Shown here in pieces: positions 35,341 to 42,970 of a stretch of 64,000 nt of DNA. Numbering within the stretch: position 1 is the stretch's first letter; each line of letters starts with the position of its first letter. A program made the position numbers and the translations under genes. This DNA is from Longimicrobiales bacterium. Lineage in GTDB: Bacteria > Gemmatimonadota > Gemmatimonadetes > Longimicrobiales > Gaopeijiaceae. The notes under the pieces were generated by a model. It was not told the DNA's origin. It saw only the letters and a program-made list of their open reading frames with translations, and searched no databases. Where the stretch lies: contig CBDCNQ010000004.1 in NCBI GenBank assembly GCA_965219445.1, positions 288,001-352,000 on the forward strand, in the 5' to 3' direction.

Positions 35341-38127
35341 CTAGCTCTCGGTCGTCCCAAACTTGATGTGCACGGTATCTGAATCCTCATCACGAAGCGC
35401 CTTCACCGCATCGTGAATCCCCTGCGTCAATTCGCGCTCTTCACGGAGCGCGTTGATGAGCCCCTCGGCTTCTCTCGCCTCGAAGCTCAGCTTCCCGGCG
35501 GTCGAGATCACATGATCGACCACCGTCCTCTGACTGGTCAGGGACTCGAGGCCGGACCGGATCTCCCTGAGTAAGGCATCCGCCCGTGCAAGACGCACCT
35601 CCGCCTGTTCAATCTGCTGCTGCCGCCCGTCGATATCGTCGAGCGCCTCTCTCATGGCATCCGCCTTGGCCTGCACTGACTCCAGCATCCGGGCGGCACC
35701 CTGTACTTCGTCACGCGCCGCGGAGATGGCCCTCACATCCTCCAGCGTTCGCTCTGACGCAGCAAACAGTTTTTCCACATCGTTGCGGACCTGCCCGACG
35801 CCCTCTTGTCTGGCGAGCAGGGTCTCAATCGACTGTTGGAGCTCCAGCTCCACCCCATCGAGCCGCGCGAGCTTCTCCTCGAACTGGGTGATTCGCTTTT
35901 CGGCGAAGCGTAGGCTGCCGGCCCTGGCCTCCAGCACGTCCGCCCGCTGCCCAATCTTCTCGGACTGCTCCTCGGCGATGACGAGGCTCTCATTCACCCC
36001 CCGGATCTTATCCTCCAAGGATTGGACCATCTCGGCCGCTTCCTTCCTCAGGGTCGACACAGCATCGAGCTGTCCCACCGCCTTCGACAGCGTGCGCTCG
36101 CCCTGGTGGATATCCTCCAACACACGGTCGGCCCGCTCGGACAGTGCGGTGACGGCCTCGGAGCGATCGACTGTCGAGTCGACTCTCTCACCCAACTCAG
36201 CCATTCGCCCCTCGGCCTGCTCAACCGCAGCCACGACCTCCTCGACCACCACGCGAACTTCATCCGCCTTATCGGCGTTCCGTGCAGCGGCCTTGAACCG
36301 ACGATCCGCATCCGTTAGGCCAGTGAGAAGGTTATTGGTGCGCTCGTCCAACTGCGTACCGATCTGACGGAGCTCCGACATCCGGACCTCGAGTTCTTCG
36401 AAAGATTCACGACGCTCGTCCAGATCCGACGCGGCTGTGACGACGCCATCCGCCATCTCCCGCATGTGATCGACGTTCGACCTCAAATCGTCCAGCTGGG
36501 CGACGTTCGCTCGTAGCTCCCCAACTCTTTCCTGGGTCTCGACCAGCCAGGCAGCGGTCTCGTCCTGCCCCATTTGCGTCCGCTCCATCTCGGCCTTCGT
36601 CGCTCGCATTCTCTCCAACGCGCCGGCGACCTCCTCTTGAGCACCACGAAGCGTTCGTAGGTCGTTCACGGCGTTCTCTACGTCGGACTGCCGCGCCTCG
36701 ATGCTGGAGAGAGACGAAGCCACGTCGACGGAGATTCGCCGGGCTTCCGACATCCCTTCCCGCATCCCTTCAACCAACTCCACCTGCTCACTGAGACGGC
36801 CCAACTCCCCAGACAGCGATGTCGTACGAGCAGACATATCGTCGACCCTGCGGTTGGCCTCGTTCAGCGCTTGGCCAGCTTCCTCGAGCTCACGGAAGCG
36901 GTTCTCGAGGTCGGTCACACTGGCCCGGAGAGCGATGACCCGCTGTCCGTCGGCCTCCAACGTGCTTTGCTCCAGCTCGAAGCGTTTGGTGCTACGCCGC
37001 ATCTGCTCCTGCAGCCCAGCTAGCGCCGCCCTCAGCGTCTTGCTATCCCGCTCGACTTGGGACTGCTCCGCCCGCAACTCGTCCGATCGCTCTCCGACCT
37101 TGGCATTCAGCTCGCGGAGGGCCTTCTTCACCTCATTGATCTGCGCTCGGGCGTCTTTCAGCTTCCCCTCGAGTTCCCAGTGGAGGTCGGTGAGCGCCCG
37201 GGCCTGGGCCTCCGTCCGGTCCATCGCCTCACGTTCCCGCTCTACCGCCGCGATCTTCCCGCTGATGTGGTCCGACAGGGTCTTCAGGGCGTTCAACTGC
37301 CGTTCCGTGCGGGCTCCGAGCTCCTCCGCCTTGTTGAGGTCCACCATTGCCTTGTCGACGCGCGCCACATTTGCGTTCGCCCTGTCCACACCGGCGTCGA
37401 CCGATTCCAACTTGGAACGCAAGTCCTTGTACCCTGACGAGATACTCTCTTGCGCCGCTCGAATACCCTCCTGGTCGTCGCTGAGCTGGGCGACTTCCTT
37501 ACCGTAGCTCAACGATTCTTCACGAGCCTGTTCGATCTGCGCTCGCACTCCGGCCAGCGCCCCTTTCGGCCCCGTAATCTCTTCGATCTCCTGCCTGATT
37601 TGCGCGATGGACTGGAGGCCTTCACCCAACTTCGCGACCCTTTCGTCGGCTTCGACCAACCGCCTCGACACCGATTCTACGGAGCTGGTCATCGCCTTCT
37701 GGTCGTCCTCTAGACCTCCTGCTCGCTCATCAATCGTCCCGATCCGGTCTTCGATCCGGGCAAGGTCGGTGGTTCGCGTCTCGAGTCGGTCGGCGGCGCT
37801 CGCACTCTGTTCGACAGTCTCCTTGAGATGTTCCTGGGACCTGCCGATTTCCTCTTCCCGCTGCTCCAGGAGGTCGAGTCGAGAAACAGATTCCGCCAGG
37901 GCGGCCGCGTGCGTCTGTAAGTCCGACGTCTGCGAATCCAGAGATTCGGCAGCGGCCTCGAGCGGATTTCCGAGATCCTCGATTTTCTTCGAGGCGGTCT
38001 CCGACCGCTTCAGAAGATCACGAAGGGCCCTTTTGTCACGATTTGCTTGGGCGAGCAGCTTCATGAGCTCCTCGGGGAGCTCTTCGAGTTCTCCGCTACC
38101 CAGTAGTGACTTGAGCCAAGACTTCAT
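35341..38127 (-). CDS. 928-aa coiled-coil protein
   Basis: Almost continuous E/L/R/A heptads, nearly Pro-free, no Walker motif. Confidence 0.85.
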   Translation of the reverse strand: MKSWLKSLLGSGELEELPEELMKLLAQANRDKRALRDLLKRSETASKKIEDLGNPLEAAAESLDSQTSDLQTHAAALAESVSRLDLLEQREEEIGRSQEHLKETVEQSASAADRLETRTTDLARIEDRIGTIDERAGGLEDDQKAMTSSVESVSRRLVEADERVAKLGEGLQSIAQIRQEIEEITGPKGALAGVRAQIEQAREESLSYGKEVAQLSDDQEGIRAAQESISSGYKDLRSKLESVDAGVDRANANVARVDKAMVDLNKAEELGARTERQLNALKTLSDHISGKIAAVEREREAMDRTEAQARALTDLHWELEGKLKDARAQINEVKKALRELNAKVGERSDELRAEQSQVERDSKTLRAALAGLQEQMRRSTKRFELEQSTLEADGQRVIALRASVTDLENRFRELEEAGQALNEANRRVDDMSARTTSLSGELGRLSEQVELVEGMREGMSEARRISVDVASSLSSIEARQSDVENAVNDLRTLRGAQEEVAGALERMRATKAEMERTQMGQDETAAWLVETQERVGELRANVAQLDDLRSNVDHMREMADGVVTAASDLDERRESFEELEVRMSELRQIGTQLDERTNNLLTGLTDADRRFKAAARNADKADEVRVVVEEVVAAVEQAEGRMAELGERVDSTVDRSEAVTALSERADRVLEDIHQGERTLSKAVGQLDAVSTLRKEAAEMVQSLEDKIRGVNESLVIAEEQSEKIGQRADVLEARAGSLRFAEKRITQFEEKLARLDGVELELQQSIETLLARQEGVGQVRNDVEKLFAASERTLEDVRAISAARDEVQGAARMLESVQAKADAMREALDDIDGRQQQIEQAEVRLARADALLREIRSGLESLTSQRTVVDHVISTAGKLSFEAREAEGLINALREERELTQGIHDAVKALRDEDSDTVHIKFGTTES

Positions 38128-38286: not shown

Positions 38287-38793
38287 TCATCGGATCAGCC
38301 GTCGCACCGGGACACTGCCTCGGGTCGTCATCTCGATCGGGTGGTCGCCCAATGGCGTGTCCACCGTGAGTTTCGTCTCAAGTGTATAGCCGATCGTACC
38401 CCGCTCCAACAGAGCACGTGCCCCCGCGCCAACTCCCCCCCAACCGAAAGAGAGTGGGAGTTCGATGGGAGTGACCGCCTGTGAGCCGAACCTGGTGGAG
38501 CCATCGAGGAATGCCTCGCCGAAACGAGTGCCCTCGAAGTCGATGGCCATGTCGATCTGACCCGTACGGAGATCATAGGAATTGGGGTTGTCCACGTCGA
38601 CCAGGAGCGTGAGTGATCCACCCGTGAGGCCGAGTCCGTCGATTTGGACCGAAGTGAGGTCGAAGTCGGGCGACTCGAAGCCGCCTTGCTGGAACATCGC
38701 ACACCCACTTGGCACGAGCGCCCAAATCAGGGCAACACAACGAGAGATGGAGATTTTCCCCGCGAAATGGCCGGCATGAACACGTTTTCTCGT
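38287..38793 (-). pseudogene. LEA_2/WHy-domain lipoprotein, start codon lost at the IS256 boundary
   Basis: VDVDNPNSYDL; frame open up to the IS end with no start codon before the signal peptide. Confidence 0.7.
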
Positions 38794-38960
38794 GAGCTAG
38801 GATCAAAGGCATCATAGGGGCATGGCGACCGCTACCGGTACCGATCAGCAGCTAAGCAGCCCGAAGACGAAGAGGCGTTCTCCTCCGGGAGCGGGTGCGC
38901 GTTCATCATTATTCGCGCAAGCAAGCAACCCAACCCGTCCTACCCAAGAGGAGGATGCCC

Positions 38961-40015
38961 ATGGAGAGGTATATCGGACTCGACGCACACGCGTCGAGCT
39001 GCACGCTGGGGATTGTAGGCCCCAGCGGCAAGCGCTTGGGCTCGCAGGTGGTGGAGACGAACGCGCGGGCGCTGATCGAGGTGCTGCGAGGGATTCCGAG
39101 GAACCGGCACTTATGCCTGGAAGAAGGGACGCTGTCGGGGTGGCTGTACGAGGTGCTGAAGCCGCACGTGGAGGAGCTGACGGTGGCGGGGGTCGGCAAG
39201 AGCCGGGGCCCGAAGACCGACAAGCTGGACGCGTTTGCCCTGGCGGAGAAGCTGCGGATCGGATCACTGGAGACGACGGTCTACAAGAACCGGGGCCAGT
39301 TCAGGCGGCTGGGGGAACGGGCGAAGAGCTACGACTTCTTGGTCGGCGACACGGTGCGGGTGAAGAACCGGCTCAAGAGCGTGCTGCGCTCGAGAGGAGT
39401 GGCCTACGGCGCGGGGCGCTCGGTCTACTTAAAGCGCGACCGGGAGGAGTGGTTGGCCAAGCTGCCGGAAGCGAGCAGGACGACGGCCGGGTTGCTGTAC
39501 GAGGAGCACGACGCACTCGTGGCATTGAGGGCGAAGGCCGAGAAGGCGTTGCTGGCGGAAGCACGCAAGCATCGAGAGTGGCATGTGCTGAAGACGTGCC
39601 CGGGTCTGGGTCCGATCCGGACGGCGGAGCTCCTGCCGGTGGTGGTGACGCCGTACCGGTTCCAGAGCCGGAGCAGGTTCTGGGCGTACTGCGGACTGGG
39701 CGTGGTGATGCGGAGCTCGTCGGACTGGGTGCGGGGTCCGGGTGGGCGGTGGGTAAGGGAACCGGTACAGCAGACGCGGGGGCTGAATCGGAACTTCAAC
39801 CACACGCTGAAGCGTGTGTTCAAGGGCGCAGCGACGACGGTGATCGGTCGGGCCGAGGACGAGCCCTTGTACCGCCACTACGAGCGACTCCTGGAGGGGG
39901 GCACGAAGCCGAATCTGGCGAAGCTGACGATCGCGCGTCAGCTCGCCTCGATCGTGCTAGCGGTGTGGCGCACGGGCGAAGCGTACGACCCAAGAGACTG
40001 GAAGCGACGGAGTAA
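38961..40015 (+). CDS. IS110-family transposase (1-bp frameshift near 39990)
   Basis: YIGLDAH, KTDKLDA, TCPGLG, RSSS; natural end YDPKRLEATE* in the shifted frame. Confidence 0.92.
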
Positions 40016-40089
40016 ACCGGCCTGGGATCGGCGAGCGTGGGGTCGAAAGCGGTCACAACATGGGGTCCGACGAAACGGAAGCGAACCGG

Positions 40090-40225
40090 TTACAGGGGAC
40101 AGCATCCATACACACCGTGGGCCGGGGCAGAGAGCCCAAGCCCCCACTCAAAGGCTATGCACCCCTGGAAGAGCCGAACGAAGCGATGGGCCACAGAGTC
40201 CCAGATAGAAGGATGGTTCCCGCTC
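40090..40225 (+). ncRNA. Putative bridge/seek RNA core (target and donor loops)
   Basis: TACACACC (40109-40116) and TCAAAGG (40148-40154) in an internal loop; TAGAAGG (40206-40212) matches the donor junction. Confidence 0.75.
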
Positions 40226-40501
40226 CAGAGCGGAGAACGCGACGGCTGTGAACGTCTTCCGGACTGCGATGCGGACCCTGCGAGCGCACCCCTCCCCACC
40301 CTGAGTCGTCGACCGGGCAATCCAAACCATGCGGACGCCGACGGTCAAAAAATGAGCCGACGGCGCGTGGGGAAGGTGCGTCTTGACCGCCAGCCCCATA
40401 GAAGGGTGTGTAAAAAAAGAGGCGACGTACCTTTCCGCTAGGTAGTAAGAAGTTAACCAGCGAATCCCGGGTGAGCGCCCGGGGGAAAGGAACGATGCCT
40501 C

Positions 40502-41746
40502 GTGAGGAAGAATATGGTGGGACCCGAGAGTGAGTCCAGCACGCCGACGTGGGAGTGCTTGGAAGCGCTGGTTCGTGAGAAGGCCCAGGAGATGGTCCAG
40601 CGGATTCTGGAGGAGGAAGTGACGGAGTTGCTCGGCCGGGAGAAGTCGGAGCGGAAGACGGTCGTAGACCCGGCGCCAGGCTACCGCAACGGCTACGGCA
40701 AGGCTCGGCGGCTGGCGATGAGCTCGGGCACGATCATGCTCCGACGGCCCCGGGTTCGAGGCATTGAGGAGCGGTTCGAGAGTCGGGTGTTGCCGTTGTT
40801 CGCACGACGGACGAAGGAGGTGGGTGCTCTGCTTCCGGAGCTGTATCTGCACGGGCTGGCGGAGGGAGACTTCGAGCTGGCGATGCGGGGCCTGCTGGGC
40901 GAGGGGGCCCCGTTGTCGAAGTCTTCGATTTGGCGGCTGCGGGCGGGATGGACAAGGAAATTCGAGGAATGGTCGAAGCGCTCGCTGGCCGACCGTGAGG
41001 TCGTCTACGTCTGGGCGGACGGGATCTACGTGAAGGCGGGGCTCGAGCGGGACAAGGCAGCGCTGCTGGTGGTTCTCGGTGCGATGCGAGATGGTACGAA
41101 GGAGGTGTTGGCCCTGAGATCGGGCTACCGAGAGTCGGTCGAGTCCTGGTCCGAGGTGTTGCGGGATCTGAAGGCACGCGGCATCGAGGCGCCCCGGCTT
41201 TTGATGGCGGACGGCAACGCGGCGATCTGGGGCGCAGTACGGCAGGTATGGCCTGAGGCGGGCGAGCAACGGTGCTGGAACCACAAGATGAGGAACGTGC
41301 TGGACCGGCTGCCTCAGCGGGAGCAGAGCGAGGCGAAGGACCTTCTCAGGACCGTGGTCTACGCACCGAGGCGGTCCGAGGCGCTGAAGGCCCGTGAGGC
41401 GTTCGCCAGGCGCTACAGACCGTGGTATCCGAAGGCGGTGGATGTACTCGAGGACGACTGGGAGCGGATGGTGGCGTTCTACGACTTCCCCGAGGACCAC
41501 TGGAAGCATCTACGCACGACGAACGTGGTCGAGAGCCCCTTTGCCGCAGTACGGCTCAGGACAACGGCGGCGAAGCGCTTCAAGCGGGTCGAGAGCGCTA
41601 CGGCGCTGATCTGGAAGCTGCTCTTGGTGGCGGAGAAGCGCTTCAGAAGGCTCGACGCTCCTCACCTCCTCAAGGACGTATTTGAAGGAAGAAAGTTCGA
41701 AGACGGAAAGCCCGTCTCAACCCAACAGCGGAAAAACGCCGCCTGA
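40502..41746 (+). CDS. IS256-family (mutator) transposase
   Basis: YRNGY, VWADGIY, QRCWNHK, LRTTNVVES. Confidence 0.95.
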   Translation: MRKNMVGPESESSTPTWECLEALVREKAQEMVQRILEEEVTELLGREKSERKTVVDPAPGYRNGYGKARRLAMSSGTIMLRRPRVRGIEERFESRVLPLFARRTKEVGALLPELYLHGLAEGDFELAMRGLLGEGAPLSKSSIWRLRAGWTRKFEEWSKRSLADREVVYVWADGIYVKAGLERDKAALLVVLGAMRDGTKEVLALRSGYRESVESWSEVLRDLKARGIEAPRLLMADGNAAIWGAVRQVWPEAGEQRCWNHKMRNVLDRLPQREQSEAKDLLRTVVYAPRRSEALKAREAFARRYRPWYPKAVDVLEDDWERMVAFYDFPEDHWKHLRTTNVVESPFAAVRLRTTAAKRFKRVESATALIWKLLLVAEKRFRRLDAPHLLKDVFEGRKFEDGKPVSTQQRKNAA

Positions 41747-41775
41747 AACATTTACACACCTATTGACCCAACCTC

Positions 41776-42970
41776 CTCGGGTAACGCCCATATCCTGAGC
41801 AACAACCATGTGATGGCGAACTCCAACAACGCCAGCATTGGGGACAACATCCTGCAACCCGGGCCGTTCGACGGAGGCTCCGCCCCGGCGGACATCATCG
41901 GCACCCTCTCTGCGTTTGAGGAGATCAGGTTCGACGGCAGCAACAACGTCATAGACGCCGCGATCGCGAGCGTCGCCCCGGGCGATGTGATGTCCCATAC
42001 CGGGAATGAGGGATATGGCCAGCCGAGCGCCACAACGGTGGCGGCTACAACCGGCATGTCGGTGACGAAGTACGGCCGCACGACCGAGGCAACCGTCGGC
42101 ACCGTGGATGCAACCAACGCCACGGTCGATGTCTGTTACCAGACGCAAGGCCCATTTCGTTGTAAAAAACTCGCCCGCTATGTGGGCCAGGTCGTCATCA
42201 CCCCCGGCACATTTAGCGACGGAGGGGATTCCGGATCGGGGATCGTGACAAATGACAACAACCTAAACCCGGTGGCACTCCTCTTCGCGGGAAGCTCATC
42301 GTATACGATCGCCAATCCGATCGACGCGGTGTTGAGCGCGTTCAACGTTACGATCGACGACGGCAGTGGCAGTACGGGCGGCAGCGGTGGGGGCAACAGC
42401 TCCCCGACAGCGTCGTTTACGTCCAGTTGCTCGAACCTCACTTGCAGCTTCGACGGATCGGGCTCCTCCGACGACGGTTCGATTGCGAGCTGGGACTGGG
42501 ACTTCGGCGACGGGAGCCCGGCGGAGTCCGGCCCGACGCCCCAACACACTTACAGCGGGAACGGCACGTACAACGTGACGCTGACTGTCACAGACGATGA
42601 AGGTGCAACCGACACGGAGAGCCAGAATGTCTCGGTCACGCAGCCGGCTACGGGTCAGCACGTCGGCGATCTCGACGGTAGCGGCCAAAACAACGGCTCT
42701 ACCTGGACGGCCGTTGTCACGATCACCGTCCACGATGCCAACCACTCGCCGGTCGCGGGGTTCTCGGTGACCGGCTTATGGTCGGGGCCCGTTGCCGGAT
42801 CCGGGGACTGCATCACAGGCCCGAATGGTCAATGCACGGTGAGTCGCGGGGGTATACGGAAGCGGGACGGAAGCGTGCAATATGACGTGACGAATGGATC
42901 GGCGACGGACGACAACCACGACCCGGATGGTGATAGCGACGGGACCACGATTACGGTGACTAAACCGTAG
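41776..42970 (+). pseudogene. Trypsin-like serine protease with PKD domain, 5'-truncated by IS256
   Basis: LSNNHV, IDAAI, GGDSGS triad motifs; WDWDFGDG PKD. Confidence 0.85.

Follow-up and report, generated by a model that had tools for sequence, protein, structure and literature searches.

The window, the whole 64-kb stretch of DNA that was analysed (C4:288001-352000 of the source genome, G000), contains an IS256-family insertion sequence with a second mobile element inserted in its left terminal inverted repeat. The IS256 host encodes an intact Mutator-type DDE transposase of 414 amino acids (40502..41746, plus strand; PF00872 199.8 bits; NF033543 295 bits, cut-off 150). Its right inverted repeat (41751..41775, plus strand) is never occupied in the source genome. 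The outer part of the left repeat, bp 1-15, is located at 38794..38808 and ends in the AG core (38807-38808). The inner part, bp 16-25, is located at 40405..40414 and contains TGTAAA, a motif of IS256-family repeats (PMC7780238); both parts read on the plus strand. Terminal repeats of about 25 bp with TGTAAA and target duplications of 8-9 bp agree with the IS256 family. The inserted element spans 38809..40404 (plus strand, from the junction comparison), including the right copy of the AG core, and splits the repeat between bp 15 and 16. It belongs to the IS110 family and is classed as IS1111 type on the basis of its downstream RNA and guide order.

An own target duplication is present in 9/28 IS256 units. 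The window copy has swapped flanks instead (38786-38793 and 41776-41783), as part of a three-way flank swap: the flank on its right matches the left flank of the unit at C4:199262, and the one on its left matches the right flank of the copy at C5:654041-657022. A protease-like PKD gene at 41776-42970 lacks a start, which is found in frame beside C4:199262. Such swaps affect 9/28 IS256 units and come from either rearrangement or mis-assembly. On the other side, a LEA_2-domain gene (38290-38778, minus strand) has its start about 15 nt from the IS256 tip, and a 928-aa protein that looks rich in coiled coils by sequence is encoded at 35341-38127 (minus strand). Joining the IS256 ends with a 6-bp spacer would give TTGACC-17-TAGGAT (41760-41765 and 38798-38803), and the IS110 element lies just downstream of that -10 box. 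Junction promoters of the IS256 family are described in PMC7780238.

Excision of 38810-40405 from the window sequence yields GAGCTAGGATCAAAGG|GTGTGTAAA. This rebuilds the IS256 left repeat, as the earlier note had claimed, and the 25-bp product matches the right repeat at 20/25 positions. Other genomes carry this empty site without an interruption (46 copies in G003 and seven in G005), and it was also found as loose ends in independent runs. The GG core proposed in the earlier note did not hold. The core is AG, at 38807-38808 and 40403-40404; the empty site is identical either way. Among the parsed relatives, with 12 parsed rows left out of these counts, the left flank ends in AG or AA in 50/50 rows (41 AG, nine AA), and the element's left end starts with G in all 50. 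The donor end is AG in 58/62 and AA in 4/62. The first base of the right flank is not a G in 10/62 rows, and the RNA base facing it is constantly G. The constant AG or AA of the left flank, the constant G of the left end and the variable first base of the right flank place the crossover after AG, which is CT on the other strand. A GG core is ruled out by these junctions of the relatives and by a self-junction in G002 without the second G. The second G is a handshake base outside the core. An AG (or AA) core at both junctions without target duplication, in agreement with the empty sites, is in line with the IS110 family.

Elements of the IS1111 group carry near-perfect sub-terminal repeats of 11-13 bp, located 7 and 3 bp from the ends. 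The corresponding repeats of the window copy were located by junction comparison at 38814..38827, 7 nt from the left end counting the core, and at 40388..40399, followed by 3 nt and the core (both plus strand). They are imperfect and align either with two 1-nt bulges or ungapped with 9/12 matches. The 7+3 register, with the core counted on the left, gave a mean of 5.1/8 matches in 32 junctions, and a register two bases further in gave 6.0/8. Joining the element ends creates TTGACC-17-CATCAT, confirming the earlier reading of the circle junction. The hexamers are a predicted -35-like TTGACC at 40383..40388 and a predicted -10-like CATCAT at 38810..38815 (both plus strand). The conservation of this putative promoter among relatives is partly built into the junction parser. 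A consensus promoter scan of the linear locus detected none, as expected. The contigs of four runs had neither a circle joint nor an empty-site joint, and the contigs of one RNA run did not cover the IS110 element; neither is evidence of absence.

The recombinase gene is located at 38961..40208 (plus strand) and encodes in the window copy a read-through protein of 415 amino acids. Intact copies encode 351 amino acids, with the stop at 40013-40015. Both domains of IS110 recombinases were recognised (PF01548, 39 bits, cut-off 29; PF02371, 31.9 bits, cut-off 21.3), and the NCBIfam IS110 model NF033542 scored 111 bits, below its cut-off of 140. The DEDD residues D8, E54, D87 and D90 and the serine S253 are invariant across 14 aligned proteins and align to the IS621 chain. 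A profile search of the PDB led to IS621 (profile E 1.5e-13) and ISCro4; the same search with the single recombinase sequence gave no hit. The earlier note had seen a frameshift at 39990 that would need repair before a reprogramming assay. The lesion in the frame exists. It is a missing C behind 39988 that is common to 5/22 aligned copies, alters only the last ~8 residues before reading through to 415 amino acids, and needs no repair. A dead gene was considered and rejected: only the C-terminus is altered, and the extra C is present in 17/23 copies, which encode the normal 351 amino acids, and in three independent runs. An assay is possible without repair because intact natural copies exist.

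The right end of the element is long, about 390 nt compared with 152 nt on the left. As in IS1111-type elements, the long non-coding region lies downstream of the gene and holds the RNA. An alignment of 60 related right ends revealed two modules with internal loops. In this alignment, 97.4% of the cells are paired and 10/29 pairs have two-sided changes; slid controls had 34-52% paired cells, a lenient comparison, as the structure came from the same alignment. The outer stem GGGG..GCAT/ATGC.CCCC described before is supported by compensatory changes in the 60 relatives. The inner stem GTGGG/CCCAC can form in the window copy, but family-wide only GG/CC is conserved and the two outer pairs often break. 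On its own, a fold of the entire right end gave no useful signal (z -1.2), and an Rfam search returned no match at E up to 1.

The first module, a target-binding loop, is located at 40094..40166 (plus strand). Guide-flank matching located the first target guide, TACACACC, at 40109..40116, where it would pair with IS256 bp 16-23 (40405-40412). The second target guide, TCAAAG, covers IS256 bp 10-15 including the core and, with the handshake dinucleotide GC, occupies 40148..40155 (both plus strand). This GC pairs with donor positions 7 and 6, and L089 alters both partners. The second module, placed by the alignment at 40173..40217 (plus strand), is a donor-binding loop with a weak left donor guide GATG (40185-40188), a right donor guide ATAGAAG (40205-40211) and a handshake GA (40212-40213). 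The weak left guide, noted before as matching only GATG, is the norm throughout the parsed relatives. The three motifs occur once each within 40016-40385: TACACACC at 40109-40116, TCAAAGG at 40148-40154 and TAGAAGG at 40206-40212. In 20,000 dinucleotide shuffles of the right end, both target guides appeared together three times and all three motifs never. The match of the right-end motifs to the 14-nt target, part of the earlier reading, is well supported by these frequencies. TAGAAGG matches the donor junction, as noted before, and in several variants the right donor guide tracks the donor end. The guide order is reversed relative to the IS110 type: the right flank appears as its reverse complement in the 5' guide, and the 3' guide runs in the same sense as the left flank, the reversal given for IS1111 in PMC11187229. 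By motif matches and covariation, the right end holds a two-loop bridge RNA, and its predicted target guides read the IS256 insertion site.

Other copies show how specific the element is. In the source genome, 24 left and 24 right IS110 ends were counted, and the IS256 left tip precedes 23/24 left junctions. IS256 is present on both sides of 22/23 complete copies; in one of these, an intron was later inserted 3 nt into the flank on the right. The same junction with the IS256 left repeat was found in G001-G004, G393 and L095, so that the flanks of further copies, which the earlier note had proposed to check, bear out its reading. The 29 right repeats of IS256 in the source genome had no IS110 insertion. 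An extra T in these repeats, which shifts the second guide out of register, explains why they are spared. A perfect empty 14-mer target was not found in the source genome. The single off-target copy matches the second guide at 8/8 positions and the first guide at 5/7 with a one-base shift. The exact junction pattern occurred in 4/401 genomes of the class, G000 included, and similar DNA in 8/61 relatives, which indicates a patchy distribution; incomplete genomes often lose repeats, and this bears on both counts.

Several unusual copies were observed. The intron-like element beside one IS110 right end is 1.9 kb long (C4:1171666-1169766, minus strand), resembles a group II intron and has an RT-like frame according to motifs seen by eye. 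It lies 3 nt past the IS110 end within the IS256 repeat, which makes three nested elements. The source genome has 13 copies of it, mostly after hairpins. At C5:1612737 and in L162 (G002), the IS110 right end adjoins AG sites inside its own gene. These self-junctions, once in G000 and twice in G002, create tandem partial duplications that repeat the bridge RNA. They resemble the half-match events of bioRxiv 10.64898/2026.08.31.748434. The single copy of G005 (L009/L163) has altered guides. Its left flank is an IS256 right repeat with a 6/7 match, and its right flank is unrelated. Its altered guides possibly re-aimed this copy at the IS256 right end.

Guides and flanks of the relatives covary. 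Parsing succeeded for 109/159 sequences; the test of the first guide excluded four rows with self-junctions or parsing errors, and that of the second excluded five. The first guide matched its own right flank at 5.68/7 positions and shuffled flanks at 3.26 (44 distinct guides, best of three registers both ways). For the second guide, 4.68/5 positions matched the own flank and 2.80 the shuffled ones (22 distinct guides). In neither test did any of 10,000 permutations reach the observed match, a significance that is overstated because the relatives are not independent. Plain single cases of tracking are L013, L085, L111, L126 and L145. Relatives with different guides occupy different sites that match those guides, as the earlier note had expected of guided insertion. 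The distance between the end of the first target guide and the crossover is 7, 8 or 9 nt in 10, 16 and 18 of 44 relatives. The shorter register in the off-target copies of G000 and G004 suggests that register flexibility is possible.

Most relatives aim at another target. Their second guide is GGATAG (or GGATAA) and their first guide starts with TTG; they include L011, L013, L014, L079, L086, L091, L098, L101 and L116-L118. In many cases the occupied sites resemble a TAG/TAA stop with a short conserved motif behind it, and folding and inspection did not identify the target class. In L138, a transposase-like gene replaces the bridge-RNA region downstream of the recombinase. We take this gene to be IS4-like.

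The IS256 guides are found in two branches, each placed among relatives with the different, commoner target. L095 has the same guides and the same IS256 insertion base as the window copy, 15/15 guide bases at 73% gene identity (recombinase 69% and IS256 transposase 73% identical). L095 and L098 share only 5/15 guide bases at about 91% DNA identity, and their sites differ. A tree of 28 proteins, chosen from the 72-row set of a quick tree, requires two guide changes. The IS256-guide elements formed one group in 0/200 bootstrap trees, and forcing them into one clade was rejected (p-AU 0.00024, 28 proteins). A recent patch from the window lineage into L095 was considered and is not supported: the loop stems are alike at 16/25 positions, no closer than L098 at 18/25. 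The IS256 guide of the two branches may have come about by convergence or by transfer of the loop out of an unsampled lineage. L093 has IS256 guides with the commoner left flank, as expected of a recently switched copy.

The junctions, the guides and their covariation with the flanks agree with the earlier claim of an IS110 element programmed by RNA against a terminal inverted repeat of IS256. In the reading that is very probably correct, a bridge recombinase of IS1111 type is directed by the right-end RNA and inserts in one orientation at bp 15/16 of the IS256 left repeat. By analogy with IS621, ISEc11 and ISEc21, the element would form a circle with a promoter made by the joined ends, and recombinase dimers on the two RNA loops would exchange strands at the core. 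Every new IS256 copy would be a new target, which IS110 would reach later and in a separate event. An overlap with the transposase-binding sequence of IS256 would keep the target stable: the first guide reads bp 16-23, into the TGTAAA motif, and the target would be hard to change. In the IS256-family transposase of ISCth4, separate sites bind bp 1-12 and bp 14-25 of the repeat (PMC7780238). The insertion would part the terminal site from most of the subterminal site and probably lowers the mobility of IS256. ISCth4 junctions that retain just 14 bp of the left repeat are still able to integrate in vitro (PMC7780238), so that a split end may keep some activity. The 'parasitism' of the earlier note stands in so far as the IS256 end is used as a renewable target; that IS256 is harmed or disabled is what we infer.

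That protein-DNA recognition or recruitment by the IS256 transposase sets the target, with the RNA match being incidental, is extremely improbable. Guides track flanks across the family; L095 and L098, about 91% identical in DNA, differ in guides and sites; both features are shared between L095 and the window copy, at 73%. It is also very unlikely that a composite IS256::IS110 transposon of about 2.98 kb was amplified by the IS256 transposase from one ancestral insertion. Own target duplications of 8-9 bp at 7/23 occupied units would fit, and bp 1-14 alone, as in the ISCth4 junctions, suffice for integration (PMC7780238). However, the duplications are equally expected if IS256 landed first, and both diverged IS256 variants and further genomes have the element at this same base. 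In 12 IS256 bodies of identical sequence, the IS110 haplotypes all differ from one another (12/12, 1-26 differences apart), which favours a separate arrival of IS110 after the spread of IS256. This argument is weaker as the haplotypes are mosaic, with 326/528 column pairs failing the four-gamete test. A composite also leaves the change of every free end in the target unexplained. Beside its 23 occupied left tips, the source genome has five free ones, and all five are altered within the 14-nt target. Three of them read TCAGAAG, TCGAAG and TCAAG before the core junction in otherwise unchanged IS256 bodies. They read as the left part of the target followed by the final bases of the IS110 right end, a product that imprecise excision would leave behind. 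The three are located at C4:199262, C4:1221680 and C5:267938. In 18 near-identical IS256 bodies, five changes were found in 24,534 bases; about 0.05 changes in the target are expected from this background (P ~2e-5 for three). These hybrid ends look like scars of imprecise excision, or else like assembly artefacts.

The free ends lead to the further reading that IS110 ends IS256 bursts by disabling left ends. Imprecise exits would leave ends that cannot be re-entered, and IS256 variants with a changed core would escape and spread. This is possible but doubtful. The five changed free ends of G000, among them the three hybrids, would be explained. Perfect free ends are also missing in G004 (0/11, eight of which share one core change; five occupied) and in G002 (0/2; two occupied), and imprecise junctions exist at C5+1030825 and in L165. 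On the other hand, hybrids could be consensus artefacts, since reads from the 23 occupied ends outnumber those from free ends. Single instances of the core variants are also present in G001 and G003; these variants could be standing variation. Many perfect targets are free in G003 (46/48, beside one occupied copy with an intact gene) and in G001 (5/8; six occupied); G005 has 7/8. These counts in other genomes allow substitutions only and miss free ends with indels. With 46/48 and 5/8 perfect ends, saturation is not general, which argues against efficient suppression. In G000, IS256 burst recently, yet the pool of IS110 copies is the more diverse one. A broader scenario, in which both elements are engaged in an arms race, is partly supported. 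IS110 would shut down IS256 bursts through a split transposase-binding site, scars would immunise ends, core variants would be selected, and the guide programme would have arisen twice by rewriting or transfer of the target loop rather than stepwise drift. As a whole, this scenario is unlikely.

One genome maps the specificity of the element with 23 on-target junctions, one off-target insertion explained by the guides, 29 spared near-matches and five changed free sites. This provides a specificity map for the IS1111 type with a CT core, a group far less studied than IS621. Genes that are 91% identical with 10/15 guide bases different, and 73% identical with 15/15 shared, make the natural retargeting of bridge RNAs testable. 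RNA-guided elements could curb the spread of the IS256 family if the split end is indeed disabled.

Insertion into the terminal repeats of other mobile elements has precedents in the IS110 family. [quoted passage not shown] The insertion described here is of the same kind. In contrast to these elements, the host is an IS256-family element, only the left repeat is hit, and the split lies between two binding sites of the family transposase. IS256 as a target of IS110 elements was not found in the literature covered, namely abstracts, main texts and the supplements of PMC11208160 open to search, with ISfinder and most of the subscription literature outside this scope.

The closest architecture is that of the ISEc11/IS1111 elements with seekRNA. 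According to PMC11187229, they have the downstream non-coding region, the sub-terminal repeats, a circle-junction promoter and the reversed guide order; the promoter is a predicted one here, and the sub-terminal repeats are imperfect. IS621 shares the DEDD and serine catalytic residues, a two-loop RNA, a CT core (PMC11208160) and handshake dinucleotides 3' of the right guides (PMC11208158 and PMC13626964). Compared with IS621, the RNA here occupies the right end and its reading of the target is opposite in orientation, pairing of the left donor guide covers about 4 nt instead of 8, and the first target guide stops 7, 8 or 9 nt short of the crossover in different relatives. The sequence similarity is distant. 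ISEc21, of the IS110 group, targets codons of the catalytic motif in IS3-family transposases, which is likewise an RNA-guided hit on a constrained IS sequence (PMC11187229). Its target is coding and its RNA is upstream. The same paper reports a natural redirection by three bases in the relative ISMch6, whereas about 10/15 guide bases differ between close relatives here. The mechanism and the targeting of the ends of other elements were already known. The locus is well supported as a further example, in which population evidence and a double origin of the guide go beyond an ordinary nested insertion.
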